DNA of 63,884 bases from an uncultured Rhodospirillaceae bacterium (GTDB lineage: Bacteria > Pseudomonadota > Alphaproteobacteria > UBA9219), in NCBI GenBank assembly GCA_964652235.1, contig CAZZDK010000012.1, forward strand, positions 1 to 63,884. Direction: 5' to 3'. The stretch's first letter is position 1. Each line of letters begins with the position of its first letter. Shown here piece after piece: positions 643-21,158 of the stretch. The position numbers and the translations under genes are program-made. Below the pieces are notes generated by a model that saw only the letters and a program-made list of their open reading frames with translations, did no database searches and had not been told where the DNA came from.

Positions 643-649
643 CCTCTCA

Positions 650-842
650 GAGGCGGCAAAAAACCGTCTTCGGGGTGTAGTAACCTCTCCAACAGCGGTG
701 CTTTGTGTTGCCGTTACCAACACTGCCCTCAGCCTATGGCTGGGAGGCAGTGGCGCATGTCCAAGCCTCACGGCTAAAGGCCATTGCAGTCGTCTGTTGG
801 CGATTTACTAACTCCCAGCCACCAGAGGTTTCCCCTCTGGTC
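650..842 (+). ncRNA. C4-type antisense RNA cassette (upstream target boxes plus antisense RNA), copy 1
   Basis: TAGTAA (678-683) complementary to TTACTA (805-810); CCAACAG (689-695) complementary to CTGTTGG (794-800); stems GGCTGGGAG/CTCCCAGCC and GCAGTGGC/GCCATTGC; homologous to 13656-13860. Confidence 0.75.
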
Positions 843-875
843 GGCTTACCTCTTTGGGTCTGGCTGGGGGATTGC

Positions 876-2474: not shown

Positions 2475-3391
2475 TGCAAGGTGTGCGCGGCTGGTTTTCT
2501 GCCACGCGGCGCGGGCGTTTTCGGCGCTGCGGGGGTGGCATAAGAAGCCTTAAATTTGCTGATAAGCGCCTCTTTTTCCGCTTCACGGATTGACTTGTCA
2601 CGCAACACTTTCTGATGCGCGGGGCTTTTCGCCACAGGCGTTCCCATGAAAATCTGATCGTATTGATAAAGCTCTTTCCGATCCAGATAATCCGCATAAA
2701 TGTCGGCGTCTTTTTCTTTTCTTGCTTTGTGTAGTCTTTGGCGCAATTCGGCCAAGCAAATGGCGCGATAAACCCTTTCATAGTTTCCGCTTGCATAAAT
2801 CTTGCGGTATTTGTCAATGGAAACGCCGTTAATGCTCTCAATATCTTTGTTGGCAAGCAGTTCGGCAACGAGCGTTGCGGCCTCAACAGGAAATAGGCTG
2901 CGGTCGCACATACCGTGCATTTCTGTCTCACAGAAAACGCGGTCACGCTCCCCGCCACAAACGCATGTTTGAACGTCGCCAGACGCTGTGCGGATAAAGA
3001 GGGCTGAGGCAAAAGCGGTGATTTCCTTGGTGTCCGCTTTGAATTGATCTTCGTTAAATACGCCTGTCGTCGTATCTGTATGGACTTCTTTAAACCAGTC
3101 ATACAGTCTGTTTGTTACAAACAGAAAATCACCGATGGGCGTGTCATCAAGCCTTATTGCATCCCATTCTTTTGATTGTCCGTCGGCTCGTTTTGAATTT
3201 CTTATTCTTGCGCCGATGGTCGGTCGGGGCTTCGTCGGTGTTTCTTCCAAATATTTTGAATTTGGCCCCGTATAAAGCTGGATGCGGCCATCATGCGGGA
3301 ATGCTTTTTCTAAACCGCCAAGTCTGACGATTTCCTTGAGAATAAGGTCAAAAATTTCTTTTGGGGTTGTTTTTCCCTCAAACATAATCAT
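2471..3391 (-). CDS. Putative NAD(P)+ glycohydrolase toxin (Tox-ARC/Tne2-like fold)
   Basis: Ordered motifs LYTG, LDDTPIG, AS..F...ASGDV, RVF.ETE, L.NKDIESING resemble the Tox-ARC pattern. Confidence 0.55.
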   Translation of the reverse strand: MIMFEGKTTPKEIFDLILKEIVRLGGLEKAFPHDGRIQLYTGPNSKYLEETPTKPRPTIGARIRNSKRADGQSKEWDAIRLDDTPIGDFLFVTNRLYDWFKEVHTDTTTGVFNEDQFKADTKEITAFASALFIRTASGDVQTCVCGGERDRVFCETEMHGMCDRSLFPVEAATLVAELLANKDIESINGVSIDKYRKIYASGNYERVYRAICLAELRQRLHKARKEKDADIYADYLDRKELYQYDQIFMGTPVAKSPAHQKVLRDKSIREAEKEALISKFKASYATPAAPKTPAPRGRKPAAHTLH

Positions 3392-3405
3392 GGCGCGTAC
3401 TCCCC

Positions 3406-3870
3406 TTAGCGAGGTTGCGCGTCTGATTTTATCTGCGGGTGTGATCCCGCATCCTCTATTGGTCGTGGGGGATAAAAGCGGATAAGTTCACGCTTGAATG
3501 AAACTGGGGAACCTTGTTTTGCGGCCTCAGCATCTTTCTTTATCAAGGCCTCAAATTGTCTCACGAGCACGTCATGATCTTCAACAGTCAGCGGGTGGGA
3601 TACCAAATCAACAACTGTATTAGGTTGCCCATGTCCAGACCGTTCAGATAAGTCCACAGTAAACTTGCAATAATAAGCTTCTCTTAAGTCATGAACGTAT
3701 ACCGTGACACCGTTTTCTTTTCTTGTGCTGCTAGGGGCATAAACCTCACGGCCATGGATGCGGTAAACAACCCCACCAGGGCGCACGCCATGTTCAACAA
3801 CTTCAATTTCTCGTTCGGTCTGTGCCACAGAGAAAAACCCTAAAATCTTTTTGATAACTGACTTCAGCAT
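3406..3870 (-). CDS. Putative immunity protein (Imm74-like)
   Basis: 14 bp upstream of the putative toxin on the same strand; GGVVYRIHGREV...VYV...PLT.ED...LV pattern. Confidence 0.4.
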   Translation of the reverse strand: MLKSVIKKILGFFSVAQTEREIEVVEHGVRPGGVVYRIHGREVYAPSSTRKENGVTVYVHDLREAYYCKFTVDLSERSGHGQPNTVVDLVSHPLTVEDHDVLVRQFEALIKKDAEAAKQGSPVSFKRELIRFYPPRPIEDAGSHPQIKSDAQPR

Positions 3871-4011
3871 AGCGTCCCCCTGTGGGCTGGTAAAATGATT
3901 TCGTGGCCTGTTAATTGTTGCGCGTTGCGCTAAATTCCTTTTCGTCTGCTAACGGATGATAGCAAAAATCCGGCCTCAAAACAATTTTGTTATTAGTTTC
4001 AATGGCTTAGC

Positions 4012-4026
4012 TTAACCATTTGTTAA
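4012..4026. promoter_or_regulatory. CtrA-type box TTAA-N7-TTAA
   Basis: TTAA CCATTTG TTAA; TTAACCAT half-sites recur at 4084 and 4444. Confidence 0.5.
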
Positions 4027-4149
4027 TAAATAGAGCCTGTTAACTCTTTTATTCAACAAAAGCGCAGGGTTGAGAATTTTCTCTTAACCATGTTGCCGCT
4101 GTCCCGCTGGTGACGGTAGAGGGAAGCGGGTGCCGTTCAGGGCTTCTTT

Positions 4150-4425
4150 CACGAAGACAAGGGCGGACTATCCGCAAAGGCTGGCAGTGCAGTAGCCTCA
4201 CGCCGTCCCTTGCCCGCGCTTGCGCGGGTCGGCGGGTTCATCCCCGCCGAGGACGTGAGGCGTTGTCCCGATGGTGACGCAAGCGCCGTCCCGATCTCTC
4301 CGCAAGGGCGATGTTTCCGCGTTGGAGCTTCCCGCCGCGCCCGACGCTCAGGGCTCCCGCCCGCGAGGGCGGGATGAGCGGAGGAGCGGCGGAACAGACC
4401 CCCCGTGTCTATAACATGGGGGGTC
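4150..4425 (+). other. Putative rolling-circle origin/oriT: GC-rich hairpin cluster plus Rep_trans/MOB_T-type nick hairpin
   Basis: GACCCCCCGTGT-CTATA-ACATGGGGGGTC (4397-4425) resembles the Tn916/ICEBs1 CCCCCC...TAACAGGGGGG nic hairpins; several small hairpins upstream. Confidence 0.7.
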
Positions 4426-4460
4426 ACAGATACATTCTTCCTCTTAACCATCAAAAAACA

Positions 4461-4490
4461 TTGACAGAGGACATTCTCTGTCCTTATGGT
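4461..4490 (+). promoter_or_regulatory. sigma70 promoter with a dyad operator in the spacer; probably leaderless transcript
   Basis: TTGACA-18 bp-TATGGT; AGGACA-N5-TGTCCT in the spacer; ATG 6 nt after the -10. Confidence 0.65.
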
Positions 4491-4496
4491 GCCGCC

Positions 4497-5030
4497 ATGA
4501 CTGATGAAACATACACACTCAACGAAGTTGCTGTGCGTCTGAGCCTTTCAAAGAAGGATCAGGCCGTTGCGCTGCTCACGCGCAAGGTCAAGCATTGGAC
4601 AAATTATGATTTACTGAACACGATTGGGGAGAAGCACACGGGCACGGGGCGCAATCGGCAGTATAAACGAGATGAGGTTATTTGTGCCGCTTATCTCAAC
4701 GAGCTTTCAAAGTTTGGCCTCACCATCGGCGGCCTAAAAGATTTTCGTGAAGAGTATGACAAGTGGATGAAAAGCGCCTCCAAGCGTAAACTGTTGCAAG
4801 GCGGAGCGACCGAAGATGATGACGGCATTTATAAAGGGGAAATCGGCGGCTATATCCTTTATCAAGGCTGGTCTGGCGACGATGAGACTAACGGGAAGTT
4901 CCTGTTCGTTGATGATCGGTTCTTGCAGCAGAAACTTTTGGGGCAGTTCCCGCCTGACATGAAACCGCAATATTTTGCCAGCGTCCTGCTTTTGAACTGC
5001 CAAGAAATCGTTGAGCGCCTAAAACTCTAA
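4497..5030 (+). CDS. MerR-like winged-HTH regulator
   Basis: YTLNEVA...RKVKHW...LL...GTGRNRQY pattern. Confidence 0.65.
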   Translation: MTDETYTLNEVAVRLSLSKKDQAVALLTRKVKHWTNYDLLNTIGEKHTGTGRNRQYKRDEVICAAYLNELSKFGLTIGGLKDFREEYDKWMKSASKRKLLQGGATEDDDGIYKGEIGGYILYQGWSGDDETNGKFLFVDDRFLQQKLLGQFPPDMKPQYFASVLLLNCQEIVERLKL

Positions 5031-5061
5031 CCCCTTTTTTTTAATCTAGCGAGGTCACAGG

Positions 5062-6150
5062 ATGTCCACTAACCACGACACAACTTTTAATTTCCTGACG
5101 CAAGGCGTGGATACGATGGAAGTCTGCTATTATCTTGATACACACAAGCCAGCTTTCAGCTTTGAAAAGCTGGCTGCCATGCGTGACGGCATAGATCGGC
5201 GCAAAGAGAAAGACGGGAAAAAAATCACGCTCGGAGGGAGAGATTTTCTGCTTAAGGCTGGCGGCACGTCTTCCGGCTTCCCTTTCATGATCCGAGATAA
5301 TGATTTTATCATTCAATTTGGCGAGTTCAACAATCCGGCTTTCAGCGTCAAATTCCTAAGCCGTTCTCTCTGGCATAAAGGCTATCGTGCCATGCACAAA
5401 GAGTTTTTGCATTGGGCAATAGCCCTGAACCTTATACCGAGAAAACGAGAGACTCTTTCCCGTGTTGATCTCTGCTTGGATTATGAGCTTATCAATAAGG
5501 ATTTTTGGGAAGAAAACTTTGTTTCCAGCTTTCACAGAGATTGCAAGTTTCGGAGCTTTGGGGAAGACGAAACATATAAATTTGGCGTTGGAACCTGTGT
5601 GCGTGTTTATAACAAATCCGCTGAGATTAAAAACAAAAGCAAAAAGACTTGGTTTTATTCCATCTGGAATGGCCTGATTAATAATGTTTGGCGCATTGAA
5701 TGGCAACTTAACAACGATTATCTCAAAAAGCGTGGTGTCCGAACTCTTGATGATTTTGAAAAATCTATAGGCTTTGTCCTTGGCCTCTTGTGTGAATATC
5801 ACACGTCGTTGCGCACCGTAACTTCCGACACCAACCGCTCACGTTGGCCTGTGCATCCGCTTTGGCTGGATGCGCAGGAGCGGTTCTCCACTTTGGGAAT
5901 GCAACCCATCAAAGCAGCTTCAAGGCTTCGGGATCACTATCCCGAAAGAGTTCAAGGCATAATTGTCAGCATGATGGGGAATGTAAAAGCCGTCGCTGCG
6001 TTAACCAGCGTCTATGACGACACGCCGCCACAGGGATTTCAGCAAACGCTAACGAATATCAATGGGCAATTGCGCCGGATTTACGACCCTCTTTCTTGGC
6101 AAGAAGATGTGCAAAAGAAAATGGATAAATTGAGGTTGGCCGATGTCTGA
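5062..6150 (+). CDS. Rep_trans-family replication initiator/relaxase
   Basis: GVDT, SRVDLCLD, RVYNKSAE (catalytic Tyr motif), VWRIEWQL. Confidence 0.8.
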   Translation: MSTNHDTTFNFLTQGVDTMEVCYYLDTHKPAFSFEKLAAMRDGIDRRKEKDGKKITLGGRDFLLKAGGTSSGFPFMIRDNDFIIQFGEFNNPAFSVKFLSRSLWHKGYRAMHKEFLHWAIALNLIPRKRETLSRVDLCLDYELINKDFWEENFVSSFHRDCKFRSFGEDETYKFGVGTCVRVYNKSAEIKNKSKKTWFYSIWNGLINNVWRIEWQLNNDYLKKRGVRTLDDFEKSIGFVLGLLCEYHTSLRTVTSDTNRSRWPVHPLWLDAQERFSTLGMQPIKAASRLRDHYPERVQGIIVSMMGNVKAVAALTSVYDDTPPQGFQQTLTNINGQLRRIYDPLSWQEDVQKKMDKLRLADV

Positions 6151-6325
6151 CGGAAATCTTGTTTTGAGCCTTGTTTACAGGAACGGGGCACGTCCGGCAG
6201 AAATCCAGTTGCTTTTGTCGTGTTTATCCGAGATTCTTAAGGAAATGCAGTTTGCAGAAAGTGAAGATGAAAATGAGAGTAGCTCTTTATGCCCGTGTGT
6301 CAACGACACGCCAAGCGGAGAATGA
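6143..6325 (+). CDS. Small protein overlapping the recombinase start (candidate directionality factor)
   Basis: Overlaps both the rep stop and the recombinase start; function inferred from position only. Confidence 0.4.
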   Translation: MSDGNLVLSLVYRNGARPAEIQLLLSCLSEILKEMQFAESEDENESSSLCPCVNDTPSGE

Positions 6326-7862
6326 ATTATCCATTCCCGACCAGTTGCGCCAAATGCGTGAATGGTGCAAGCGCAACGGGCATATCGTCGCCCATGAATA
6401 TGTAGAGGCTGGCGCAACCGCGACGGATGACAAGAGGCCGGAGTTTCAAGAAATGATTGCGGCAGGAGTGGAAAAACACGCTCCTTTTCAGGCGGTCATT
6501 GTCCATAGCTATTCTCGTTTCTTCCGTGATCTGGCGCAAGCCGTTTTCTATGAACGTCGGTTGAATAAGTCGGGGGTTGATCTTGTTTCTATCACACAGG
6601 AAACAGGCAACGATCCGATGGGGCAGCTTTTCCGCCATTTGGTCATGATGTTTGACGAATACCAAAGCAAAGAAAACGCCAAGCACACCTTGCGCGGCAT
6701 GAATGAAAATGCGCGGCAGGGATATTTTAACGGGGCTAAAGCCCCCTTTGGCTATCGGACAATTGATGCGGGACGCACGGGCGCACATGGGCGGCTGAAA
6801 AAGAAACTGGATATTGATCCCGCCGAGGCCGAGATTGTTCGGGAAATCTTTACACTCTACGTCCACGGCAAAGACGCGCCGCGTATTGGCATGAAAGAAA
6901 TTGCCAAAAACCTAAACGAACGCGGCCTTCTTATGCGCGGCAAACTCTGGCGCACTCAAAAGGTTTTTGAGGTGCTTTCCAGTCTCACATATATGGGCTT
7001 GCACGTCTTTAACAAGACGGACAGCAGGACGCGGCGGATCAAGCCGGAAAGTGACTGGATCAAGGTTCCTGTTCCTGCTGTCATTGATCTGGCTCTTTTT
7101 GAACAAGCAACCAAGCTGCGCGGCGCGTTCTCTCCCAAGCGGTGTGCTCCGCGTCGTGAAACGTCCTCAACACTTTTGACAGGCATTTTGAAGTGTGATT
7201 GCTGCGGTTCTGGCATGACCATCACCACGGGCAAAGGCGGGCGCTATAAATATTACAAATGCACCAACCGCATGAGCAAGGGCAATGCCTCTTGCCCCTC
7301 CCGTAACATTCCCGCCGATAAGCTGGATGGGCTTGTTTTGGATGCCTTCCGGCAGAAGGTCTGTGCCCCTGATTATTTGAAGGGGCTGCTTAACGACCTC
7401 CGCGCCGAAATGGATAAGGGCGGTGGGGCAGATAAAGGACGGATCAAAAAACTTGAAGCCGAGATTAAAAAAGTTGAGCAAGCCCAAAACCGTCTCATTG
7501 ATGCGGTTGCCTCTGGCGTATTAGATAAAGATATGGTCGGAGATAAGGCGCACCAGAACAAAGCCCGAAAAGAAAGCCTCCTTCTTGAAATTGCCGCCCT
7601 TAAGCGCAAACAACAAATGCCGCTAGCCGTTATCTCTCCCCAGAAGATAGATGCCTTCACCCGCGTGATCCGCGACCGCCTGACGGAGCCTTCCGCGTTC
7701 TCCCGCGCCTATCTTAAGGCCGCTGTCGGTGAAATCAGGATAAGGGACGACGAAATGACGATCCGAGGCTCTCGGTCGTCTATGGTGGGTCTTATTTCAA
7801 ATGGAGGTCATATTAACGTGGGCGAAGTGCCCACATTCATACAGGAATGGCGTCCCCGATAG
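6267..7862 (+). CDS. Large serine recombinase (integrase)
   Basis: YARVST catalytic Ser, SRF.R, APFGY, Zn ribbon CDCCG...YYKC...C, coiled coil. Confidence 0.95.
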   Translation: MKMRVALYARVSTTRQAENELSIPDQLRQMREWCKRNGHIVAHEYVEAGATATDDKRPEFQEMIAAGVEKHAPFQAVIVHSYSRFFRDLAQAVFYERRLNKSGVDLVSITQETGNDPMGQLFRHLVMMFDEYQSKENAKHTLRGMNENARQGYFNGAKAPFGYRTIDAGRTGAHGRLKKKLDIDPAEAEIVREIFTLYVHGKDAPRIGMKEIAKNLNERGLLMRGKLWRTQKVFEVLSSLTYMGLHVFNKTDSRTRRIKPESDWIKVPVPAVIDLALFEQATKLRGAFSPKRCAPRRETSSTLLTGILKCDCCGSGMTITTGKGGRYKYYKCTNRMSKGNASCPSRNIPADKLDGLVLDAFRQKVCAPDYLKGLLNDLRAEMDKGGGADKGRIKKLEAEIKKVEQAQNRLIDAVASGVLDKDMVGDKAHQNKARKESLLLEIAALKRKQQMPLAVISPQKIDAFTRVIRDRLTEPSAFSRAYLKAAVGEIRIRDDEMTIRGSRSSMVGLISNGGHINVGEVPTFIQEWRPR

Positions 7863-7924
7863 GATTCGAACCTACGGCCCCAAGTTTAGGAAACTTGTGC
7901 TCTATCCAACTGAGCTACGGGGAC
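7848..7924 (-). tRNA. tRNA-Arg(CCT)
   Basis: GTCCCCG acceptor stem, CAAGT-TTCCTAA-ACTTG anticodon arm, GTTCGAATC, encoded CCA. Confidence 0.97.
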
Positions 7925-7992
7925 TTGTCCATTTTTGTGCCACCAAAAGGAGGCGTAACGGCCTAAAATACAGGCCAAAACTTGCGAAAGCG

Positions 7993-8021
7993 TTTATGCC
8001 TCATTCCAGCGCGGCCTGCAA
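7993..8021 (-). promoter_or_regulatory. Putative promoter of the intact tRNA-Arg
   Basis: Minus strand TTGCAG-17 bp-CATAAA; shares TGAGGCATAAA with the promoter at 16442-16470. Confidence 0.6.
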
Positions 8022-8109
8022 GTAAATCGGCGAATTCGGAGGCTTTTCTGCTTTTTGGTATAGGGTTACGCTTCACTATAACGAAAGACACGGGAGACGG
8101 GGCCTGTCG

Positions 8110-8901
8110 ATGAATGCAAGTGCTAAAGTCTGGCAAGGAGTACTGGAAGAGTTTAATAGCGAGACCGCGTATTGGGCGCAGTATTCCTTGCATCCGATTG
8201 GTCGGGCTAAGCATTTTGCCCCTTGGGAAGGGTTTGCCGCAGACGGAAAGTTTGTTGCTTCTGGTGCTTTGACCGAGGCGCAGAAGCATTACCCGTATGT
8301 CGAGGGGCTTGAGGATTCAATCAACGAAGCGTTGCGCTGGATGAAGCGCCCTCCTGCTCAATTGAGGGAGGGGCTTAAGCGTCTGTCTGCTGGGAAACAG
8401 CCTGACGACCTTTTTGCCATTTTCAAACTATATGGTGATTTCAGGGAACATCTCGCCGTTTTATACGCTCGCGATCCAGGCCATGCAGGATTCCCAACCC
8501 AAAGAGGAAGTAGTCAAGCACCCCAGAGAAAAAGCGGACAGGCAAAGCGGAAAAACGGCGATCAAAAAAAATCATATAAACTGAAATGCTTTGCCGCCAG
8601 CTTTATGATGGCTGTAATCAGAACTCGCGGATGCACCATTAAGGACGGGATTATAGAAGCCCGGCATTGGCTTGAAGATTTTGCGGCAAATATCGTTTTA
8701 GGAAAAAAGAAAGCGCCAAAGGAATTTGCTGATTACGATTTTAATGTGCTGTTGCAAAAGCTTCCAAAGAAAATGGGGCAAAGCGAACGGGCATCCTATC
8801 AATTACACGATAAGTTCTGCAAAGAGCTTACCGCACCTCATTTAGATGAATGGGTTGATGAGGTTTTGGTGGCAAAGATTCAGACACTTTCCCTTTTCTG
8901 A
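8110..8901 (+). CDS. Hypothetical protein
   Basis: 263-aa ORF with GGAG upstream, co-oriented with the replication module. Confidence 0.6.
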   Translation: MNASAKVWQGVLEEFNSETAYWAQYSLHPIGRAKHFAPWEGFAADGKFVASGALTEAQKHYPYVEGLEDSINEALRWMKRPPAQLREGLKRLSAGKQPDDLFAIFKLYGDFREHLAVLYARDPGHAGFPTQRGSSQAPQRKSGQAKRKNGDQKKSYKLKCFAASFMMAVIRTRGCTIKDGIIEARHWLEDFAANIVLGKKKAPKEFADYDFNVLLQKLPKKMGQSERASYQLHDKFCKELTAPHLDEWVDEVLVAKIQTLSLF

Positions 8902-8981
8902 CCCTAGGTCGGACCCCGGTTGCGCCGAACATAAGAGCCTAGGTGTTACAGATAGCTCCATTGAAACAAATGGAGGTCCCT

Positions 8982-9209
8982 ATGCCTGAAATACCACAAA
9001 ACACCAACCCACCAGAAAGAATGTTCACTATTGGTCAAGCGGCAGACCTTTTGGGTATTCCGCGCTGGAAGCTTTATCGCGCCGTAAAATACGGTCTCGT
9101 TCCCTGCCACCGGATTTTGAACTCGAGAAAGTTGGTTCGCCTATCTGAGATAGAGGCGGCCATTCAACAGTATCAATATTTTCCCAGAATAAATTGGAGG
9201 GACCAATGA
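8982..9209 (+). CDS. Excisionase-like HTH protein
   Basis: FTIGQAADLLGIPRWKLYR...G.VP; GGAGG RBS; ATGA overlap with the next gene. Confidence 0.8.
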   Translation: MPEIPQNTNPPERMFTIGQAADLLGIPRWKLYRAVKYGLVPCHRILNSRKLVRLSEIEAAIQQYQYFPRINWRDQ

Positions 9210-11725
9210 GCAACGTTGTCAACAAAGATCAAATCGAGCGGTTCATTGCCACTCGCTATCCCGCCGATCATGACGGTTATAAAGTTCTGTGGAGCCGCCA
9301 GCAACAAGGCAAAACCGGATTCTACGGCGCGGATGAAACCGACGCGTTGAGCGAATCTATTGCAAAGCGCGGCGCAACAGAAGACCTTTATTTGCCTGTC
9401 GGGCTTCAGCGCGAAAAGTTGCCGCCGACCGAACGCGGAAAAACGGAAGGGGTTGTTTCTGTCTCCGGGCTCTTTGCGGATATCGACACGCAAATCGGGA
9501 AGGATGTGGATCGGGGCTATTGCCGCGACAACGAAGAGGCGCTCACAATTCTGCGGCAGTTTAAGCCTTTTCCTTCCATTATTGTCAATTCCGGCAACGG
9601 GCTTCAGGCACACTGGCTTTTCGACTCTCCGGTATTGCTAGAGTCTGCGGGCGACCGCGAACGCGTTCAGGCCGTCTTCCGCGCCTTTCAGAAAAAGTTG
9701 CGTGAACACTTTGCTGCACAAGGCAAGGTCATCGACAGTGTGCATGACCTGGCCCGAGTATTTCGCATTCCAGGGACGTTCAATCATAAGTGGGGCGAGC
9801 CAAAGCCTGTTACGGCGTTGGAATACCACGAGGACGCGAGATATGGCTTTTCGGAAATCGAGGCCATTGTGCAAGATGTCCTTGCGCCCGAACCGGCCAC
9901 GAGTGACGAGGACAGCGATTTTCCTCTGGCCGATCACAATAAGATTGTGAAGGGGTGCCCTTGGTACGGCGCGTGCGTCAAAAATCCTGAAAGCTGCAGC
10001 GAGCCGAACTGGTACGCCGCCGCTTCGATCACAAGCCGGTGTGAGGACGGGCGTCACAAGTTCCATGCCTTCAGCCATAAACACCCAAAATACACCGAGG
10101 CGGAAGCTAACCAAAAGTTTGATCGCGGTTTTCAGGAGGCGGGCCCGCGCACCTGTAAGGCGATCTGCGAGGATCTTGGCAACGAGGCCTACTGCAAAAA
10201 CTGCCCCCATTTCGGCAAGATCACATCGCCGATTCTGCTGGGGCAGAAGAAAAAGCGGCAAGAAGCGGCAAAAGACAAAGCTATCGCCGCAATTCTGGAA
10301 TCGGCGGAATTGTTTCATGATGCCGGGGGAACCGCCTTCATGACGACAAAGGACGCCAATGGGGTCGAACGGACGCATATTATCAACTCATCCGGCGGCA
10401 AGAACCAAATACGACATGCCCACTATTTGAAGACTGGAAAATCTTTACCGGCACAGGCCGTAAGTGATGTCGCCGGTCTTTTGGAGGCCAAGGCCTTGTT
10501 CACGGGACCATGCGAGGAGGTATTCATTCGCATGGGAGGGCATGACGGCAATATATACATTGATCTCGGTGACGAGGCGGGGTCGGTCGTTTGCATTACG
10601 CCTGATGGTTGGGATGTCAGACAGGAAAGTCCGATAAAGTTTCTGAGGCCAAAGGGCTTGACCGCTCTGCCGATGCCGGACAAGAACGGGGACGTTCATC
10701 TGTTTCGCGAAATTCTTGGGCTCCCCGAGGAAGTTTGGATGGGCTTGCTTGCGTTTATGGTGAGTTGCACCCATCCGAAAGGCCCTTACTTCCATTTGAT
10801 GATTGAAGGTGAACAAGGAAGCGGAAAAACCTTTGCCTCATCTTGTGTGAAGCGGGTGATCGATCCGGCAATCGCACTTCGGACCATCATACCCAAAAAT
10901 GTACGCGATATGATGGTGATCGCTGACACAAACCGTCTTTTGTCATTTGACAATATGTCGCAAATCTCAGGTGATATGTCGGACGTTTTGTGTACGTTGG
11001 CGACAGGCGGAGGATTGATCGGGCGCAAACTGTTCACGGATGGCGATCCGTTCATCATGAACTGCACGCGGCCTGTAATCATGAACGGGATCACAAGTAT
11101 GATCTATCGTCCGGATTTGTTGGATCGCACGCTTCCGGTTTTCTTCATTGCCCGTGCAGAAGAAGGCAAGATAGCTGAAGAGGAGTTGTTGGCGAAGTTC
11201 AACAAAGCCCTGCCGCGCATTCTTGGTGGGCTTTACGCCATCCTTTCGGCGGCCTTGCGTAACAAGGACAAGGTTCAGGCTCCAACAAATATCCGTATGG
11301 CAGACTGCGCCCTGTGGCTCTGTGCGGCGGAACCTGCAACGGGCTTGCCCGAGGGAGCGTTCGTAAAGGCAATCGTTGCCAGCCAAAAGACCCTTGTGGT
11401 CGAGCAGATGGTAACGCACCCAGCCGTTAGGAAGCTCTTCGAAATCCTGAAAAACGGGGCTTACGAGGGAACGCTTGGCCAATTGCATGATCGTGTTTGT
11501 TCCAATCTCAGCCCCAAGGACAAGGAGATTGTTGGGCAAACCGCATCCGGGTTCTCGAACAAACTAAAGCGCCTGAAGTCTTCTTTGAAGGCTGTCGGGA
11601 TCGAGTTTGAGTTTGGAGGGAAAACCCGAACCGGCAAGATGGTGCGCTTTTGGCTTAACGAAAACGCTATTGAGGATGGCCCTGAGGATGAGGAGGAACC
11701 CCTGATCACAAACAGACAGTATTAG
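9206..11725 (+). CDS. Primase (RepB'-type AEP)-helicase fusion
   Basis: ADID, SGNGLQAHW, RVFRIPGT.N.K; Cys-rich linker; Walker A GEQGSGKT, FDN, DLLDR. Confidence 0.85.
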   Translation: MSNVVNKDQIERFIATRYPADHDGYKVLWSRQQQGKTGFYGADETDALSESIAKRGATEDLYLPVGLQREKLPPTERGKTEGVVSVSGLFADIDTQIGKDVDRGYCRDNEEALTILRQFKPFPSIIVNSGNGLQAHWLFDSPVLLESAGDRERVQAVFRAFQKKLREHFAAQGKVIDSVHDLARVFRIPGTFNHKWGEPKPVTALEYHEDARYGFSEIEAIVQDVLAPEPATSDEDSDFPLADHNKIVKGCPWYGACVKNPESCSEPNWYAAASITSRCEDGRHKFHAFSHKHPKYTEAEANQKFDRGFQEAGPRTCKAICEDLGNEAYCKNCPHFGKITSPILLGQKKKRQEAAKDKAIAAILESAELFHDAGGTAFMTTKDANGVERTHIINSSGGKNQIRHAHYLKTGKSLPAQAVSDVAGLLEAKALFTGPCEEVFIRMGGHDGNIYIDLGDEAGSVVCITPDGWDVRQESPIKFLRPKGLTALPMPDKNGDVHLFREILGLPEEVWMGLLAFMVSCTHPKGPYFHLMIEGEQGSGKTFASSCVKRVIDPAIALRTIIPKNVRDMMVIADTNRLLSFDNMSQISGDMSDVLCTLATGGGLIGRKLFTDGDPFIMNCTRPVIMNGITSMIYRPDLLDRTLPVFFIARAEEGKIAEEELLAKFNKALPRILGGLYAILSAALRNKDKVQAPTNIRMADCALWLCAAEPATGLPEGAFVKAIVASQKTLVVEQMVTHPAVRKLFEILKNGAYEGTLGQLHDRVCSNLSPKDKEIVGQTASGFSNKLKRLKSSLKAVGIEFEFGGKTRTGKMVRFWLNENAIEDGPEDEEEPLITNRQY

Positions 11726-11735
11726 GTCAGCAGTC

Positions 11736-11856
11736 TGTGACGATGTGATGCATGTGATGGCCCTTTCGCTTCTCTCGTTAGGCAGATGATGCCCAGCGGG
11801 TCGGCGAAGGGGGGCGAGGGGCTTTCGTGGATCATCACCATCATCACACCATCACA
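11736..11856. repeat. Converging TGTGAYG iterons, putative origin
   Basis: Three TGTGA(C/T)G at 11736-11760 and three inverted CATCAC(A) at 11833-11856. Confidence 0.65.
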
Positions 11857-11928
11857 CCAATAATTGTGTGGCCACTATTTGCCGTGTTTTTCTTGGAAAC
11901 CGGAGGCCATTTGTAAAAGGAGGAGAAG

Positions 11929-13221
11929 ATGGGAGCCGTTAATATCAGCAAGCGCAACATGACGCGCAAGACTCGCTCTGGGGGTGCGGTCGTTCTGCAA
12001 CGCTATGTCCTGAGCTACACCGACCCGAGAACGGGCAAGCGCATGCAGAAATTCTTTGAACGTCAGAAGGACGCGCAGACGCATCAATCCAAAATCATGT
12101 CCGACCTGCATCTGGGCGTCTGTGCGGACGAGCGGAAAGTGCCGACCATTGCCGAGGCGTTCGATAACTGGATCGACGACAGGCGCGGCCAAGTCAAAAA
12201 GACGACCATAGATGGTTACGCTTGTTACCGCCCGTGCATCGTCGGGCCGCTGCTTGCAGGAACGGCAGAGCAGCGCATGGTCTATGCCCGCACGGGCAAG
12301 GTGCCGAAGGGCCTGAAGCTCCTGCCCATGCTGGGCAACAAAAAGGTGACAGCCCTCACAACGGCGGACATTCGCGCATGGCAGCGTTTGCTGTGTGATA
12401 CCGTCGGCCCCTACATGACGAAGAAGGCGCAGTCCTATCTGAAAACCTTGATGGGGCTGGCGGCGGAGGATCACAACCTCCGACTGGCACCGATGCCGCG
12501 TCGCCTCGGTCGGGGCAAGCCCAAGGTGGAAAAGGTCATCCTCCTGCCGGAGCAAGTGCAAAAGCTACTGAACCACGCGAAGCAGGACCGCGATTACGGC
12601 GTTTATTACGCTTTCCCGTTCTTGGTTGGAACGCGCCCGTCCGAACAGCTTGGTTTGCTGTGGGAGGACGTCGATTTTGAAAACCGCGTGATCCACATTC
12701 GCCGGATGCAGGAAAAGGACGGCAGGTTGTGCGAGACCACCAAAACTTCGGCGGGCATGCGCGATGTGCCGATGTCGGCCATGCTTTACGACATGATGCT
12801 TGAATGGAAAGACCGCTGTCCGAGGCGCGAGGGTTGCCCGCATCGCGTCTTTCCGAATATCGGCTTTCGCAGCTTTCACAACAAACCTCGAAAGGGCGGC
12901 GGGAACTTTCTGCTCTATGGCAACTTCCGTGCGCGGGTCTGGGTGCGGGTTTTGAAGAAGCTTGGCTTGCCGCCCGTCACGCCGCACAGCGCCCGCCATT
13001 GCTTTATCTCAACCCTGCAAGCGCAAGGCGTGGAGATCGGGCTTGTCTCTAAGTTGGCCGGACACGCGAACGCCAGTATTACGCTCGGCCATTACACGCA
13101 CGCCGTCCGAGGCGGCGAGGATGCGGTCGAGAGGCTGTCGCGGGCCTTCCTGCCGGAGACGGCGCAGAGTGTGTCCGCGAGCCAAGGAAAGGCCCTCTCT
13201 GGTACAGGCGGCGCGGCCTGA
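11929..13221 (+). CDS. Tyrosine recombinase/integrase
   Basis: GTRPSE, TKT, HSARH, GH, HY catalytic set; AGGAGG RBS. Confidence 0.95.
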   Translation: MGAVNISKRNMTRKTRSGGAVVLQRYVLSYTDPRTGKRMQKFFERQKDAQTHQSKIMSDLHLGVCADERKVPTIAEAFDNWIDDRRGQVKKTTIDGYACYRPCIVGPLLAGTAEQRMVYARTGKVPKGLKLLPMLGNKKVTALTTADIRAWQRLLCDTVGPYMTKKAQSYLKTLMGLAAEDHNLRLAPMPRRLGRGKPKVEKVILLPEQVQKLLNHAKQDRDYGVYYAFPFLVGTRPSEQLGLLWEDVDFENRVIHIRRMQEKDGRLCETTKTSAGMRDVPMSAMLYDMMLEWKDRCPRREGCPHRVFPNIGFRSFHNKPRKGGGNFLLYGNFRARVWVRVLKKLGLPPVTPHSARHCFISTLQAQGVEIGLVSKLAGHANASITLGHYTHAVRGGEDAVERLSRAFLPETAQSVSASQGKALSGTGGAA

Positions 13222-13655
13222 GCCTCGCGCGCGAAGGATGAGGTTTTAAGGAGCCGCCCCGCGTGGCCCTTCAGAAGAACGGCAAGACACGAGGTTGAAA
13301 TAGCCCGCTCGCTCTGTTGCACTACCAAGATGACCCCTTGCACCCTATTGCTGGACAGGGCCAACAAATGAACTCCTGCTCCCTTGGCACATGATCCGCG
13401 CCCCGAAACGCGGCTCTTGAGGCCGCGCCGGACGCCAAAACAACGTTGCGTTCGCCGCCGCGTTTGCAGAAAATGAGGATTGCTGGATTTCGCAAGATAG
13501 AAGGGACCCACGGAATGCCCAGCGCAAAGACATTTTTGGCATGCCCACAGTACCCCATAGAGCGAGTTGACTTATGCTCACGGTGATCGGGAATTCCGAA
13601 GCCCTGTAAATACAAAACATTGACGCAAATAGGCTTGCCGTGCTTTTCTTGGCTC

Positions 13656-13860
13656 GAGGGCAGGAAAAAGCTGCCTTCCGGGGTGTAGTTGCCTCGTAGT
13701 TAGCGGTGCTTTGCGTTGCCGTTACCAACGCTGCCTTTCGGTCTCTTATGGCCGGGAGGCGGCGGCGTATGTCCAAGCCTCACGGCCAAAGGTCGTCGCG
13801 GTCGTCTAACTACGATCAACTAACTCCCGGTCGCCAGGGCACATGCCCCTGGCGGCTTTT
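13656..13860 (+). ncRNA. C4-type antisense RNA cassette, copy 2
   Basis: TAGTTG (13686-91) complementary to CAACTA (13817-22); CGTAGTTAG (13695-703) complementary to CTAACTACG (13806-14); stems covary with copy 1. Confidence 0.75.
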
Positions 13861-13881
13861 CTTCTTTTGGGGAGTTGGCCG

Positions 13882-14163
13882 ATGGATAATCTCAAAACAA
13901 TTTTTCTTCTTTGTGGGCTGGCCGGTTTGTCGGCTTGTGCGATAGGCACGACCCAGATCGCGGGCTCAACGCCGGGCATGGTGAGTGTTTGCGCTGGCAA
14001 AGAATCCCAACAGGTGATTTTGAGCACGGCCCAAGCGGCCTGTCAGGAATACGGCAAGAATGCCGAGCTTATCGAGGAGACAAAAATCCGGTGTTTCCGT
14101 GAGGGCGGCTGGATGGAACCCGCGAACAGTTACTTGCAAAACTTCCGTTGTGTCGCGCCATAG
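13882..14163 (+). CDS. Small Cys-rich lipoprotein
   Basis: Signal peptide with LSAC lipobox; GGGAG RBS; four further Cys. Confidence 0.7.
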   Translation: MDNLKTIFLLCGLAGLSACAIGTTQIAGSTPGMVSVCAGKESQQVILSTAQAACQEYGKNAELIEETKIRCFREGGWMEPANSYLQNFRCVAP

Positions 14164-14174
14164 CGGGGGGCCCC

Positions 14175-14492
14175 ATGACAAAAACAAAAATCTTGAAAGT
14201 CATTGAAAGAATTTGGCTGGTCTTGGCCTTGATCCCGTTCGTACTTTCGTTCCCGCAATATTTTTCAACTCTTCGAGAGACGAGCCCGTTTAGTCTGGAC
14301 TCGATGATCTTCACGGCGAGTTATCTCTTTCTCTTTTCTCCCACGCTTTATGCTCGGTACTGGCGCGACAACCTAGAGAAGGGAAAGGACGAAACGAGGG
14401 GGCAAAAGATCAGACGCATGTTTTGCCTGTTCGCGCTTATGGCCTTGGTTCTTGGGGTAACGTGGCTTGGCCTTCGCGCAGGCTTAAGATAA
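14175..14492 (+). CDS. Small three-TM membrane protein
   Basis: Three hydrophobic segments; 11 bp after the lipoprotein. Confidence 0.6.
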   Translation: MTKTKILKVIERIWLVLALIPFVLSFPQYFSTLRETSPFSLDSMIFTASYLFLFSPTLYARYWRDNLEKGKDETRGQKIRRMFCLFALMALVLGVTWLGLRAGLR

Positions 14493-14497
14493 ATTAT

Positions 14498-15493
14498 CTA
14501 AGCCGTAGCCAATGCGAACGCTAAGCTTTGTTGGTCATCACCCCAATCTTCTGCGGACACCTTATTCAGGGCGGAATATATCGCTTTGCCGACTGCTGCA
14601 GCAACAGGGGGAGGAAAAGCATTCCCTATTTGCCGATATTGAGCTGTTTTCTTTCCTTGAAACGCCCATGAATCTGGGAAGCCTTGGATACGAGCAACCA
14701 TTCTATTTGTAAGACGTGGCAAATGATTTATGGGCATATCCGATGAAGGTGCGGCATCAGCAAGCCCCTTTCCATCTACGCCCAGTTTTTCCCACTGAGT
14801 TTTAGCTCTCGTTGGGCCTAGATCAGCTCCCCCGTGTTTCTTAGAACCTCCAACAATAGTTGGGGCTACGGCGTTAGCCTTTCTTTTCCATTCTCGAAGA
14901 CCCTTCCAGCCGTTTTCTCCTAGCAGGTCAGCGATGGTCTCTCCGACAGTGGTCACTTTTGTGATTGGGCGTGGCCAACGAAAGTACTGTGCGTACTGGG
15001 GCTTCAGGCCAACCAAAACAAAACGGGGGCGGAGTTGAGGAACGCCGAAACTTGAAGCGTTCAGAACTTGCCACGACACCTCATAACCAAGGGTGTTAAG
15101 CTCTTTTATTAGCTTTTGGCGGTACCTATCAAACTTACTCGACGCAAAACCGCGAACATTCTCGAGCATTATAGCTTTAGGTTGACATTCGCGTATTAGG
15201 CGAAGGGCTTCAGGGAAAAGATCGCGTTCGTCATTAGCCCCTAGCTGTTTACCAGCAATAGAAAATGGGGGGCATGGAACGCCGCCAGCAAAGAGGTCAA
15301 CGCCCCGAAACAATTTTCCATCAATATCACGAACATCTGTTTCAAGGACGTTCCATGCAGGCCTGTTGTGCCTAAGCGTTGCGCACGCGTTAGGGTCAAT
15401 CTCGACAGCGCACTTGGTCTCAAAGCCAGCCATTTCCAATCCTATGGCTTGGCCCCCAGCACCCGCACAAATTTCCACTACAGAAAAGCTCAT
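14498..15493 (-). CDS. DNA (cytosine-5) methyltransferase, M.NaeI/M.NgoMIV-like
   Basis: CAGAGG, PCPPFS, ENV, QLRPR, GN motifs; TRD APTIVGGSKKHGGADLGPTRAK. Confidence 0.92.
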   Translation of the reverse strand: MSFSVVEICAGAGGQAIGLEMAGFETKCAVEIDPNACATLRHNRPAWNVLETDVRDIDGKLFRGVDLFAGGVPCPPFSIAGKQLGANDERDLFPEALRLIRECQPKAIMLENVRGFASSKFDRYRQKLIKELNTLGYEVSWQVLNASSFGVPQLRPRFVLVGLKPQYAQYFRWPRPITKVTTVGETIADLLGENGWKGLREWKRKANAVAPTIVGGSKKHGGADLGPTRAKTQWEKLGVDGKGLADAAPSSDMPINHLPRLTNRMVARIQGFPDSWAFQGKKTAQYRQIGNAFPPPVAAAVGKAIYSALNKVSAEDWGDDQQSLAFALATA

Positions 15494-15594
15494 TTCATAC
15501 CGTTTTCGAATCACGTGACAATTTTAACCTATGGAACTAACCTACACAATATTTCCCCTTGTGCGCGTTTCTTTGGCATTAAGTTGAGGCCCCT

Positions 15595-16251
15595 GTGAAA
15601 TTTGAAGAATACATCGCTAGCGTCCCTCATAGCCTTAGCGAGGTGAAGCTCAAGATTCTAAAAACCCTTTGGGAAGCAGGGGACGGGTTTCCACGTCCTT
15701 GGGTCAAAAGCGCTCTGCTTTTGAAAATCACAAAACAGAAGTACTTTGACCGTCGCACAAGAGAGCTGAGAGACGAGCAAGGAATTGATATTGAAACAAA
15801 ACAGATAGACGGCCAGCACTGTTACAGGTTGGTTTCTGCAAAAATGCAGAAGGCGAATCCAAGACAATACCTGTCCGCTTCGCAGAAGGCAGCTCTCTTC
15901 GAAACAGCAAAGAACACATGCCAAGTTTGCGGCAAGAAGTGCGCGGGCGGCGTTCGAGGTCTGCAAGCAGATCACAAAATCCCACTCGTGCGCGGCGGCT
16001 CTCAAGACATCGGCAACTGGCAGACGATCTGCAACGAGTGCAATGTTGTTAAACGGAGAGTTTGTGAAGGCTGCGATGCTGATTGTAACGCTTGCCCATG
16101 GGCCTTCCCCGAGAAGTTTGGTGGCTTTATCCGGCTTAACCTTTCGGGTATAGCGTTGTCACGTTTGAAGGTTCTAGCGGGCGGAAGTGCTAGCAAGATG
16201 GCAAAGATCGCCGAGAAGCTTTTAGAAAAAGCAATAAACGAAGAAGCTTGA
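15595..16251 (+). CDS. HNH endonuclease, probable cognate restriction enzyme
   Basis: RRTRELRDEQG wHTH-like segment, CQVCG, DHKIP...GG...N...C..CN; divergent from the MTase. Confidence 0.8.
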   Translation: MKFEEYIASVPHSLSEVKLKILKTLWEAGDGFPRPWVKSALLLKITKQKYFDRRTRELRDEQGIDIETKQIDGQHCYRLVSAKMQKANPRQYLSASQKAALFETAKNTCQVCGKKCAGGVRGLQADHKIPLVRGGSQDIGNWQTICNECNVVKRRVCEGCDADCNACPWAFPEKFGGFIRLNLSGIALSRLKVLAGGSASKMAKIAEKLLEKAINEEA

Positions 16252-16379
16252 AGTCGTGCTCCCATGCGAACCGGCGAACTGCGAACGCATTGCAAACACG
16301 GGGCTTTTTGGCGGTGTTACATGCGCCGAAAGTGGCGGCGCGGCTTTTTAATATGTTGGGGGTATACATGAATGCCCGC

Positions 16380-16418
16380 TTAGGAAACCGATGCTTTATC
16401 CAACTGAACTGCGGGCGC
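16380..16418 (-). pseudogene. Decayed 5' half of a tRNA-Arg(CCT)
   Basis: GCGCCCGCAGTTCAGTTGGATAAAGCATCGGTTTCCTAA; 31/39 identical to the intact tRNA; similarity stops at the end of the anticodon loop. Confidence 0.85.
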
Positions 16419-16441
16419 TTAGAACATTTCGCGAGGGGGTC

Positions 16442-16470
16442 TTTATGCCTCAAGCCCTTGCGGGACGCAA
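16442..16470 (-). promoter_or_regulatory. Stable-RNA-type promoter in front of the tRNA half
   Basis: TTGCGT-17 bp-CATAAA followed by GC-rich GACCCCC. Confidence 0.65.
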
Positions 16471-16574
16471 CAGCAGGGACCGTTAGCCCTTATTCTTCCT
16501 TTCTATTCTTCCTTTCCCCCTTGCGCCGTTCGCGCTATATTGCTTAGAAGCGTTCTAAACAACAGGAGGCCTCC

Positions 16575-17114
16575 ATGCTCGGCGTAGGACAAAAATTCCC
16601 GCCTTTCAACCTGTTAGCCGTTGTCTCCGACGATCCCAAGCAAGCATTTATGTCCGTGACGGAAGCGGCCTTTGAGGGACGGTGGCTGGTCGTTTTCTTT
16701 TGGCCCAAGGATTTTACCTTCGTTTGCCCGACGGAAATCGCGGCTTTCGGCTCGAAAAACAAGGAGTTCGAAGATCGTGGAGCCCAAATTCTGGGCGCCA
16801 GCGTGGACTCCGAATACGTCCATTTGGCCTGGCGGCAAAATAATATGGTTCTCAAGGACTTGCCTTTCCCGATGCTGTCCGATATGAAGCGGGAATTGGC
16901 TGGGGCGTTGGGTATCCTGGACCCCGGCGCGGGCGCAGCCCAGCGCGCGACCTATATTATCGATCCCGAGGGGACGATCCGTTTTGTTTACGTGACGGAT
17001 TTGAATGTCGGGCGTAATGTGGACGAGGTTTTGCGCGTTCTGGACGCGCTTCAAAACGGCGGGCTTTGCCCGTGCGCCTGGCAGAAGGGAGAGCCGACCC
17101 TTAACGCCGGATAG
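16575..17114 (+). CDS. ahpC: Peroxiredoxin AhpC
   Basis: FWPKDFTFVCPTE; GRNVDEVLRVLDALQ; LCPC. Confidence 0.93.
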   Translation: MLGVGQKFPPFNLLAVVSDDPKQAFMSVTEAAFEGRWLVVFFWPKDFTFVCPTEIAAFGSKNKEFEDRGAQILGASVDSEYVHLAWRQNNMVLKDLPFPMLSDMKRELAGALGILDPGAGAAQRATYIIDPEGTIRFVYVTDLNVGRNVDEVLRVLDALQNGGLCPCAWQKGEPTLNAG

Positions 17115-20341: not shown

Positions 20342-21019
20342 TTAAAAACCGAACCGGACGCCGAAACGGATTTGATGGGAGCCAAAGCCGAGTTTCATTT
20401 TTTCGGAAATATTTTGCGAAGGCGAGAAAGCGTCGAAGCTTCCTTCGCTTGTTCCGAGGTACCGATACGACATACCGAGGCTAAGTTGCGGGTTGATCTG
20501 GTACATCGTGCCGACCGTGAAATGATAGGCGAAGACCGTCGAAGAATCGTCGCTTGTGAACGTCACGGGCGCGCCGGAAACGGAGAAGTCAAGCCGCGCG
20601 AGTCCCGCGCCTGCGCCGATGAAGGGCTTGATAGCGGAGGATGTGGGGATGTCGATATAGCCGCTGCCCATAAGGGTTAGGACCGAAATGGACCCGGGAC
20701 TCGGATAAATAACTCCGGCTTCATGCACTTTGTCGAGCTCCGCTTTTTGATAGCCGATAGAGCCGTCGATCCTGAAAAGACCGAAATCGTAACCGAGGGC
20801 GCCGTCGAAAACGGCGCTTTCGTTGAAAACGATGCTGGAATCCAAAGAAGAGCCGTTGGCCTTTTTGTAATCCTTAATATCGCTGTCGGCGTTGAAGGCG
20901 CCGGCCAGGTTGATCTCAAGATATTTGCCGGTAGCTTGCTGTGCGGTTTGGGCGGCGGCGGGCGCGGCGGCGAGCAAAGCCGGAACGAAAAAAGAGAGAA
21001 GGAAAGAGGTCTTTCTCAT
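20342..21019 (-). CDS. Outer-membrane beta-barrel protein (opacity/OmpW-like)
   Basis: Signal peptide, PFIGAGAG, YRY, terminal Phe. Confidence 0.85.
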   Translation of the reverse strand: MRKTSFLLSFFVPALLAAAPAAAQTAQQATGKYLEINLAGAFNADSDIKDYKKANGSSLDSSIVFNESAVFDGALGYDFGLFRIDGSIGYQKAELDKVHEAGVIYPSPGSISVLTLMGSGYIDIPTSSAIKPFIGAGAGLARLDFSVSGAPVTFTSDDSSTVFAYHFTVGTMYQINPQLSLGMSYRYLGTSEGSFDAFSPSQNISEKMKLGFGSHQIRFGVRFGF

Positions 21020-21158
21020 AAAAACTCCTTGGAACGCGAAACGACGGGGCAAAATACGCGAAAACCCCTGGGGAGGTCAATCAAAAGACCGTTTTTCCAC
21101 CCGAAGCTTGACTTTCCTGAGGCAAAAACGTACCAAGCTCTCCTTCGGTTTGGCCGAA

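Follow-up and report, generated by a model that had tools for sequence, protein, structure and literature searches.

What becomes of a tRNA gene when an island enters it and neither junction can put the gene together again? The question is raised by a DNA stretch of 63,884 nucleotides (nt) from an uncultured Rhodospirillaceae bacterium (assembly GCA_964652235.1, contig CAZZDK010000012.1), hereafter the window, in which an orphaned 5′ half of a tRNA-Arg(CCT) gene and an intact tRNA-Arg(CCT) gene of another allele lie on either side of a tyrosine integrase gene and its neighbours. An earlier note on this DNA took the arrangement for a reverse-polarity integration, in which an element broke the native gene and brought a replacement. 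Here we argue that a single ~12-kb tyrosine-integrase island, termed E-alpha, is inserted at the anticodon loop of the tRNA-Arg(CCT) gene and carries a complete replacement tRNA, a reading to which we assign a probability of roughly 0.7. The window is contig C12 of the host assembly (G000; 43 contigs, 1.9 Mb) and its position 1 is a contig end; on this reading the right-hand part of the island lies on a second contig, C9. The best match of the host TsaD protein, at 77%, places the organism near the Micavibrio-like Alphaproteobacteria. tRNAs were called with ARAGORN and Rfam, protein families with Pfam, PHROG and TIGRFAM, and the arms of the island with nhmmer. Coordinates of all features are collected in Table 1.

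A Broken and an Intact tRNA-Arg(CCT) Gene

The intact copy keeps all 21 cloverleaf pairs, and no other intact tRNA-Arg(CCT) was found among the assembly's 40 tRNAs. The other copy, read on the minus strand from 16418 to 16380, resembles it up to a point exactly past the anticodon loop, where the likeness ends; the two align as repeat family D8 (7886-7926 against 16380-16420, 80% over 41 nt), which bears out the view of the earlier note that the fragment is a tRNA-Arg(CCT) 5′ half ending at that loop. The block common to both copies is 9 nt long (TTAGGAAAC on the plus strand). When the stems of the fragment are set against the 3′ half of the intact gene, the acceptor stem forms at 5 of 7 positions and the anticodon stem at 2 Watson-Crick and 2 G-U positions out of 5, so that full pairing fails, as had been claimed. 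For comparison we fetched, from relatives in the same family and order, 16 loci matching the fragment, ten of which hold an intact tRNA-Arg(CCT) gene. Against the allele of all 16 sequences the fragment carries 4 changes in 32 nt, and three of these (T8 to C, C11 to T and G23 to A) fall at positions invariant in the whole set. G23 to A also disrupts a D-stem pair. By these alignments the fragment derives from the native gene, orphaned and in decay.

The ten intact genes from relatives of the host order are, without exception, of the same a-type as the fragment, with an acceptor strand GCGCCCG or one change away from it and an anticodon stem ending in CGGT. The intact gene of the window is of another kind, allele b (GTCCCCG...CAAGT), which none of the ten carries and which has no equal in a wider sample of 301 genomes from the same class; its nearest kin are chromosomal genes in other families of that class, at 87-90% identity. 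An exact 41-mer of allele b had no match in the genome contig collection, nor did an exact 34-mer of the native promoter and 5′ end in the metagenome contig collection. Judged by gene sequence, then, the allele replacement is real, and the island carries an allele alien to the order of the host; the central proposal of the earlier note, that the native gene was broken and an intact replacement brought in with its own upstream motif, thus stands. The island-free locus could not be reconstructed: among the ahpC matches listed in relatives, none adjoins a match to the tRNA-Arg(CCT) 5′ half, and the neighbours of the tRNA vary.

The codon read by this tRNA, AGG, makes up 7.2% of the Arg codons in long open reading frames (ORFs) of the genome. 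AGA makes up 4.4%, and the Arg tRNAs of the assembly are ACG, CCG and CCT, with tRNA-Arg(TCT) not found among the 40; given this use of AGA, a tRNA gene is probably missing from the assembly.

A Probable Single Element With Two Arms

A scan of metagenome contigs for relatives of the window integrase returned three loci at 86-88% identity (L164, L165 and L166, the last in a 135-kb contig). On one strand of L164 the sequence TTCCTAA occurs at three sites: one joins a tRNA 5′ half to a conserved non-coding end, the Q-arm; one lies in an intact tRNA-Arg(CCT) gene (allele c); and one, 4 kb beyond that gene, joins a second conserved end, the P-arm, to a tRNA 3′ half. The outer halves of L164 pair with each other at every position (acceptor 7/7, anticodon stem 5/5, together 12/12), and combining them with the inner gene leaves 3-4 of the 12 positions unpaired or G-U. 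L166 is built in the same way, its outer halves pairing at 7/7 and 4/5 (11/12) and its inner gene at 12/12. Since the outer halves of both loci make a coherent tRNA-Arg(CCT), attB lies within the host tRNA gene. The inner tRNAs of L164 and L166 show no difference in 77 nt, though the host alleles differ, and alleles b and c differ at 9 positions, 8 of which amount to four stem pairs changed on both sides.

In both loci a short conserved sequence, the tail, comes after the intact gene, and cargo, the P-arm and then a separate 3′ half come after the tail; in G000 a nested element stands between the intact gene and the tail, which begins at C9:441. This geometry bears on the reverse-polarity proposal. 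A displaced 5′ fragment does stand at the far end, as reverse polarity would have it, but the 3′ half of the intact gene is not continuous with the host flank, and the idea that the intact tRNA bounds the island, its 5′ half joining a host 3′ half, finds no support: in L164 and L166 that tRNA is internal and host halves stand at both ends.

DNA shared by L164 and L166 is limited to the P-arm, the tRNA, the integrase gene with ~1 kb more, and the Q-arm (76-99% identity), while the other modules differ. Over the three loci the mean column identity is 85% for the Q-arm (alignment A1) and 76% for the P-arm (alignment A2). The P-arm is ~190 nt long and contains four GTGTNR repeats (three in L166) at an exact 10-nt spacing, phased as arm-type binding sites would be. 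At the anticodon loop attP and attB have a block of 7-9 nt in common, TTCCTAA with 0-2 nt added; its partners at the junctions are the Q-arm and the P-arm, not tRNA sequence, and ARAGORN calls no gene at the junctions. Such a core is too short to restore a functional tRNA at either one. Pfam scanning covered ORFs between the outer halves, short ones of 104-127 aa being left out; among the ORFs scanned, a single integrase is the only recombinase match in L164 and likewise in L166. The P-side parts hold cargo only, namely Gabija-like genes in L164, WYL, multiubiquitin and ThiF genes in L166, and a CHAT-domain gene with others on C9. In a soil metagenome run from another study (X3), likeness to the window, at ~90%, is confined to 7.8-16.7 kb; the flanks of that copy differ, and its P-arm junction is the same. 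P-side and Q-side occur together in all four instances seen.

More distant integrase relatives, at 39-51% identity (L062-L069, L167 and L168), have no recognisable tRNA halves or att repeats. An exact Q-arm 19-mer had no match in the genome contig collection and an exact P-arm 21-mer none in the viral contig collection. Three viral contig matches to the Q-arm 19-mer were set aside as chance, lying within unrelated coding sequence of three near-identical contigs.

These features suggest the following course. attP would consist of the conserved P-arm, TTCCTAA and the conserved Q-arm, and integration through this short core would split the host gene and restore it at neither junction, because attP shares only 7-9 nt with its target. 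The complete tRNA-Arg(CCT) of the island, with its own promoter-like motif, would then take over the decoding of AGG.

The Island in the Host Genome and Its Nested Element

G000 contains one Q-arm (nhmmer E-value 1.3e-25) and one P-arm (C9:3805-3994); nhmmer found no second copy of either in the genome, its sole marginal Q-like match leading to a canonical island on contig C8. The island therein spans from 16379 leftwards, over the contig end, to C9:3995. Read in the sense of the tRNA, the order is native 5′ half (16418 to 16380), Q-arm, HNH endonuclease and C-5 methylase genes, integrase, primase-like gene, excisionase-like gene, the gene of a 263-aa protein, promoter-like motif and tRNA allele b (7924 to 7848). 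The nested element comes next (7845 to 1, then C9:1 to 434), followed by the ~68-nt tail (C9:441-501) and cargo, and at the right end by the P-arm, the core TTCCTAA and a 3′ half at C9:4003-4040. The 47-nt copy of the 3′ half at C9:3994-4040 is thus the right-hand att site of the island (P-arm, TTCCTAA and 3′ half), not the far end of the "element 1" named in the earlier note. Minus the nested insert the island measures ~12.1 kb, compared with 12.5 kb in L164 and 12.3 kb in L166.

The nested element has the features of a large serine recombinase element: resolvase, recombinase and zinc-ribbon domains in one protein, whose Ccr/XisF-like matches lie under the cutoff, and an 8-nt identity at the junction. 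On C9, positions 425-442 match the 3′ end of the tRNA at 15 of 18 positions and run into the tail, as happens directly after the inner tRNA of L164. Since the tail at C9:441-501 follows this imperfect 18-nt tRNA 3′ end and the 8-nt repeat, the serine-recombinase element is nested in the 3′ end of the island tRNA. The suggestion that the replacement gene itself served as a target for "element 1" therefore holds insofar as a second element did hit it; that element is of the large serine recombinase kind, with its own 8-nt junction. In the proposed sequence of events the replacement tRNA would have become its target after E-alpha had arrived.

The tail occurs twice in G000, at C9:441-501 (75% alike) and after the 3′ half on C9 (47 of 60 nt like the L164 tail). 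This right-hand 3′ half is c-type, that is, of element type, and with its tail it is not native; it adjoins a histidine-kinase gene. We suppose that the target of E-alpha was the replacement tRNA of an earlier member of the family, whose left part would later have been lost.

When the 5′ half and the 3′ half were joined by script, 4 cloverleaf pairs were broken and ARAGORN called no tRNA, in agreement with the expectation that excision would leave a mismatched hybrid. Excision would also remove the sole intact tRNA-Arg(CCT) gene of the assembly. As excision cannot restore a working gene, the island tRNA would be fixed in the host.

Promoter-Like Motifs

Upstream of both copies we found the TTGC-N17-CATAAA motif that had been noticed before; the sequence common to the two sites is TGAGGCATAAA (repeat D11). 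The pattern TTGCNN-N17-CATAAA occurs just 9 times in 3.8 million genome positions and also stands upstream of three out of four other tRNA-Arg(CCT) genes, whole or fragmentary, that L164 and L166 contain. Being so rare genome-wide and yet recurring upstream of those copies, the motif is beyond chance. The motif of the L164 tRNA has the same hexamers and the same distance as that at 7993-8021, with a different spacer sequence. From their form and position, both motifs would act as promoters.

Weighing the Alternatives

Several observations weigh against a single island. Consensus sigma-70 scanning found no promoter at either tRNA copy in the window; it misses both sites because CATAAA lacks the final T. 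The join between C12 position 1 and C9:1 crosses a contig gap, and we infer it, with G+C of 0.44-0.45 at both contig ends. The outer halves of G000 are mismatched, pairing at 5/7 acceptor positions and, in the anticodon stem, at 3/5 with one further G-U, and none of the 43 contigs yielded a native 3′ half, which requires at least two extra events; a search of C9:1-16000 with Rfam returned no partial tRNA and missed even the known 3′ half, so that a decayed native 3′ half could escape it. DNA to the right of the tail is host-core-like, znuBCA, tsaD and gpsA being 64-72% identical to those of relatives, and the supposed earlier element has therefore left no visible remnant. No excised circle, P-arm-core-Q-arm junction, joint skipping 7886-16380 or empty site was seen; the four runs compared consist of contigs, which cannot show rare forms. 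L165 is identical to L164, and L164 and L166 come from one metagenome, so the independent instances are G000, L164, L166 and, in part, X3. The order of events proposed for G000 leaves part of its pattern without an explanation. In the relative G008, moreover, one and the same allele is seen in a 5′ half, an intact gene and a 3′ half, which suits a different account. In that account, which we consider unlikely, two separate elements share one core: a reverse-polarity element running from the Q-arm through the integrase to promoter and 5′ half, and an integrase-less element of normal polarity (3′ half, tail, cargo and P-arm) mobilised in trans, the intact gene being their joint product. Displaced 5′ and 3′ halves around an intact gene are just what it predicts; at the same tRNA another relative, G026, seems to contain an element of true reverse polarity, whose repeat comprises the promoter region plus the 5′ half and for which no 3′ fragment was found, and integration at the 5′-distal side of tRNA genes has been published and described as rare (PMC6563490). 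Yet a single insertion of such an element would make a hybrid with 3-4 (L164) or 2-3 (L166) unpaired or G-U positions among the 12 stem pairs, whereas the supplied halves match each other at 12/12 in all three loci, and do so through the four compensatory pair changes that separate alleles b and c. Nor would two elements lead one to expect identical inner genes in the two different hosts of L164 and L166, P-side parts that have lost or never had a recombinase match and still retain a 190-nt arm whose repeats are phased, or the company of the two sides at every locus.

The model of the earlier note, spelled out as an island at 7925-16379 bounded by the intact gene, beside a canonical "element 1" with a 47-nt att repeat of the 3′ half, fits the repeat geometry inside the window and the way the serine recombinase abuts the 3′ end of the tRNA. 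It is nonetheless improbable, given that a junction belonging to the serine-recombinase element lies 3.5 kb ahead of the 47-nt copy and that the tail resumes at C9:441, and that the P-arm preceding that copy is common to L164 and L166, where no serine recombinase occurs among the scanned ORFs. Serine recombinases are not known to leave a 47-nt repeat. Hardly credible is the notion that the 5′ half is a non-recombinational relic, such as a decayed tandem tRNA copy cut by deletion: decayed it is, with 4 changes in 32 nt, but L164 and L166 are broken at the identical nucleotide beside a homologous Q-arm, and five related genomes at that same nucleotide beside unrelated sequence. With the anatomy of the island, the pairing logic, the foreign allele and the conservation of the arms all directly observed, we favour the one-island reading, in which E-alpha would move as a single unit and the host would depend on the tRNA that it carries.

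Comparison With Known Systems

By the textbook rule, islands in tRNA genes carry the 3′ part of their target and regenerate the gene. E-alpha shares with such islands (Williams 2002; Islander, PMC4383910) a tyrosine integrase, a crossover in the anticodon loop, and a primase gene, an AlpA-like gene and an integrase together with defence cargo, and differs from them in that no 3′ part of the target stands beside the core: the Q-arm follows the core directly and the gene is not regenerated. The assembly also holds an island that does follow the rule, with a 38-nt repeat that restores the 3′ half. It lies at C8:11958-20942, at an intact tRNA-Thr(CGT) gene followed by Q-arm-like sequence, and has a PrimPol-like gene and an integrase (15642-16892, minus strand) 38% identical to that of the window; a perfect 38-nt copy of the tRNA 3′ half stands 8.9 kb away at 20905-20942, and a 21-nt copy at 21115-21135.

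A reverse-orientation integrative element described by Zhao and Williams (J Bacteriol, 2002), reportedly from Mesorhizobium loti, is reported to have its own 5′ part joined to the 3′ part of the host gene. The island resembles it in the displaced tRNA 5′ fragment at one end; unlike in that element as reported, the intact gene here is wholly the island's own and internal, and a displaced 3′ half is present as well.

The closest parallel is tRNA-dependent lysogeny in actinobacteriophages (Fionnbharth and others; Guerrero-Bustamante & Hatfull, mBio 2024, PMC10865867). The tyrosine integrase of these phages targets a single-copy tRNA gene through a ~10-bp core and leaves it unreconstructed, and experiments showed that the phage has to supply a tRNA of that isotype; the canonical sister phage Boilgate has a 43-bp core. 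Every sequence-level feature described there is found here: a tyrosine integrase, an attB in a tRNA gene, a very short core and, within the element in each of G000, L164 and L166, a whole tRNA gene for the same isotype. As Boilgate does there, a canonical long-core relative stands alongside here, in the tRNA-Thr island on C8. The differences are that our island is ~12 kb long, non-phage and in a different host phylum (a Micavibrio-like alphaproteobacterium), that its core is the anticodon loop itself, that the carried allele is foreign to the host's order, and that targeting appears serial. Survival of integrants would here depend on the carried tRNA, as was demonstrated for the phages. The prophage Lj965 of Lactobacillus johnsonii, as cited in PMC10865867, likewise fails to restore its tRNA at the junction and encodes the cognate tRNA; it is a Firmicutes prophage, unlike the non-phage island described here. 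A limited literature search found no published non-phage island of this kind.

Gene Content and Neighbouring Observations

The scanned ORFs matched no capsid, tail or terminase family, nor any other family of structural or packaging proteins, and in IMG/VR the closest relative of the integrase is only 27% identical. The HTH_17 protein is a candidate recombination directionality factor, as far as its family matches tell. Small ORFs are also present in the region between the two tRNA copies. Cargo in this family is defence-like and different in each copy, the window copy having a C-5 methylase and an HNH endonuclease that look like a restriction-modification pair. Downstream of the integrase gene lies a segment resembling sRNA-Xcc1. 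RF02221 scores 35.9 and 35.0 bits for 13750-13840 and 738-828, under the gathering score of 53; both segments (plus strand) lie in ~190-nt repeats, D1 and D4, which are 73-82% alike. The copy at 738-828 is in the nested serine-recombinase element, and the segment is conserved in L164 and L166 too.

Table 1. Features of the tRNA-Arg(CCT) island, of its nested element and of the cargo in related copies (window coordinates unless a locus or contig is given).
Feature	Position	Strand	Basis or remark
Body of nested serine-recombinase element ("element 1")	1-7845		runs off the contig end; presumed to continue in C9:1-434
Large serine recombinase	6171-7862	+	PF00239, PF07508, PF13408; last codons overlap tRNA 3′ end
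8-nt repeat ACGCCATT (tRNA sense), junction of nested element	7846-7853		partner at C9:435-442
Replacement tRNA-Arg(CCT), allele b, complete	7848-7924	-	ARAGORN; Rfam tRNA 68.9 bits
TTGCAG-N17-CATAAA promoter-like motif of island tRNA	7993-8021	-	68 nt upstream of the 5′ end of the gene
Conserved 263-aa protein	8110-8901	+	no family match (Pfam, PHROG, TIGRFAM); 66% identical in L164
HTH_17/excisionase-like small protein	8943-9209	+	PF12728 4.9e-07; phrog_66, phrog_7506; TIGR01764 under cutoff
Primase/polymerase-like protein, 843 aa	9194-11725	+	phrog_2478 "DNA polymerase/primase" 5.4e-20; no Pfam match; 65% identical in L164
Tyrosine integrase	11929-13221	+	PF00589 5.9e-19; phrog_1 4e-49; 86-88% identical to L164-L166
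sRNA-Xcc1-like conserved segment downstream of integrase gene	13750-13840	+	RF02221, gathering score 53 not reached
C-5 cytosine DNA methyltransferase (cargo)	14498-15514	-	PF00145 1.6e-75; TIGR00675
HNH endonuclease (cargo)	15595-16251	+	PF01844 1.7e-12; PHROG HNH families
Q-arm, conserved non-coding island end adjoining core	16284-16379	-	alignment A1 with L164 and L166
Terminator-like hairpin inside Q-arm	16322-16342		
Native a-type tRNA-Arg(CCT) 5′ half, positions 1-39; host arm of attL	16380-16418	-	repeat D8, stem pairing, relatives
7-nt core TTCCTAA of left half	16380-16386		within 5′ half
TTGCGT-N17-CATAAA promoter-like motif of broken native tRNA	16442-16470	-	23 nt upstream of the 5′ end
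L164 cargo: Gabija-like AAA_15/DUF2813 ATPase and UvrD helicase, second AAA_15 ATPase	L164:2561-5781 and 12532-14223		
L166 cargo: WYL, multiubiquitin and ThiF(E1)	L166:2569-6277		
C9 (L152) cargo: CHAT-domain protein	C9:1796-2839		

Other elements appear to have used the same break point. Five relatives contain a pristine tRNA-Arg(CCT) 5′ half ending there (G008:C35:56174, G026:C17:36198, G034:C134:7576, G040:C105:6233 and G016:C129:19922), each beside the end of an unrelated element that has GTCTC-type repeats. Along with the 5′ half, 60-90 nt of the promoter region are repeated in G026 and G008. The integrase of G026 lies directly upstream of the intact gene and the assembly has no 3′ fragment; by its layout the element looks like one of true reverse polarity, possibly an integrative and conjugative element (ArdC, DUF736). 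G008 has a 3′-only fragment 29 kb downstream (C4:34483).

The regions flanking the island in G000 were also compared with G026 and G028 (window 16.4-30 kb; C9:12.5-15.7 kb). Downstream of tRNA-Arg(CCT), both G026 and G028 have homologues of genes at 27-30 kb of the window; in G026, tsaD and gpsA lie upstream. Between the same flanks the tRNA array of G000 has the opposite orientation, which may reflect an old rearrangement. Between znuA and tsaD on C9 is a 1009-aa ORF (9156-12185) with a G+C of 0.45-0.52 against ~0.6 around it, no Pfam match, and partial DNA matches in several relatives. Elsewhere in G000, at C20:13266, the last ~20 nt of tRNA-Arg(ACG) (C20:13445-13521) and its downstream flank are repeated ~190 nt away, in what looks from its structure like a small att scar.

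Implications

The exception in which an element breaks a tRNA gene and brings a spare was shown experimentally only in 2024, for actinobacteriophages, in a paper that also raised the question of how common it is (PMC10865867). Our analysis suggests that tRNA-dependent integration also operates outside phages, in a primase-integrase island that carries defence cargo, has a host of another phylum and uses the anticodon loop alone as core. Island finders that rely on a regenerated target and a displaced 3′ fragment would misplace the borders of this island, as the earlier note did.

Tentatively, and at rather less than even odds, we extend this reading to a Micavibrio-like family of defence-cargo islands that would break the single-copy tRNA-Arg(CCU) gene through a 7-nt core and supply their own copy, later members hitting the copy of the previous one; the native halves would decay, the foreign allele would become irreversibly fixed, and the replacement gene would serve as a landing pad. 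The evolutionary consequence goes beyond the phage work just cited: the host allele is lost, a foreign one is fixed, and excision no longer restores the gene. If the family reading is true, this would be the first case of non-phage tRNA-dependent integration, and a concrete route for the horizontal displacement of an essential tRNA gene.

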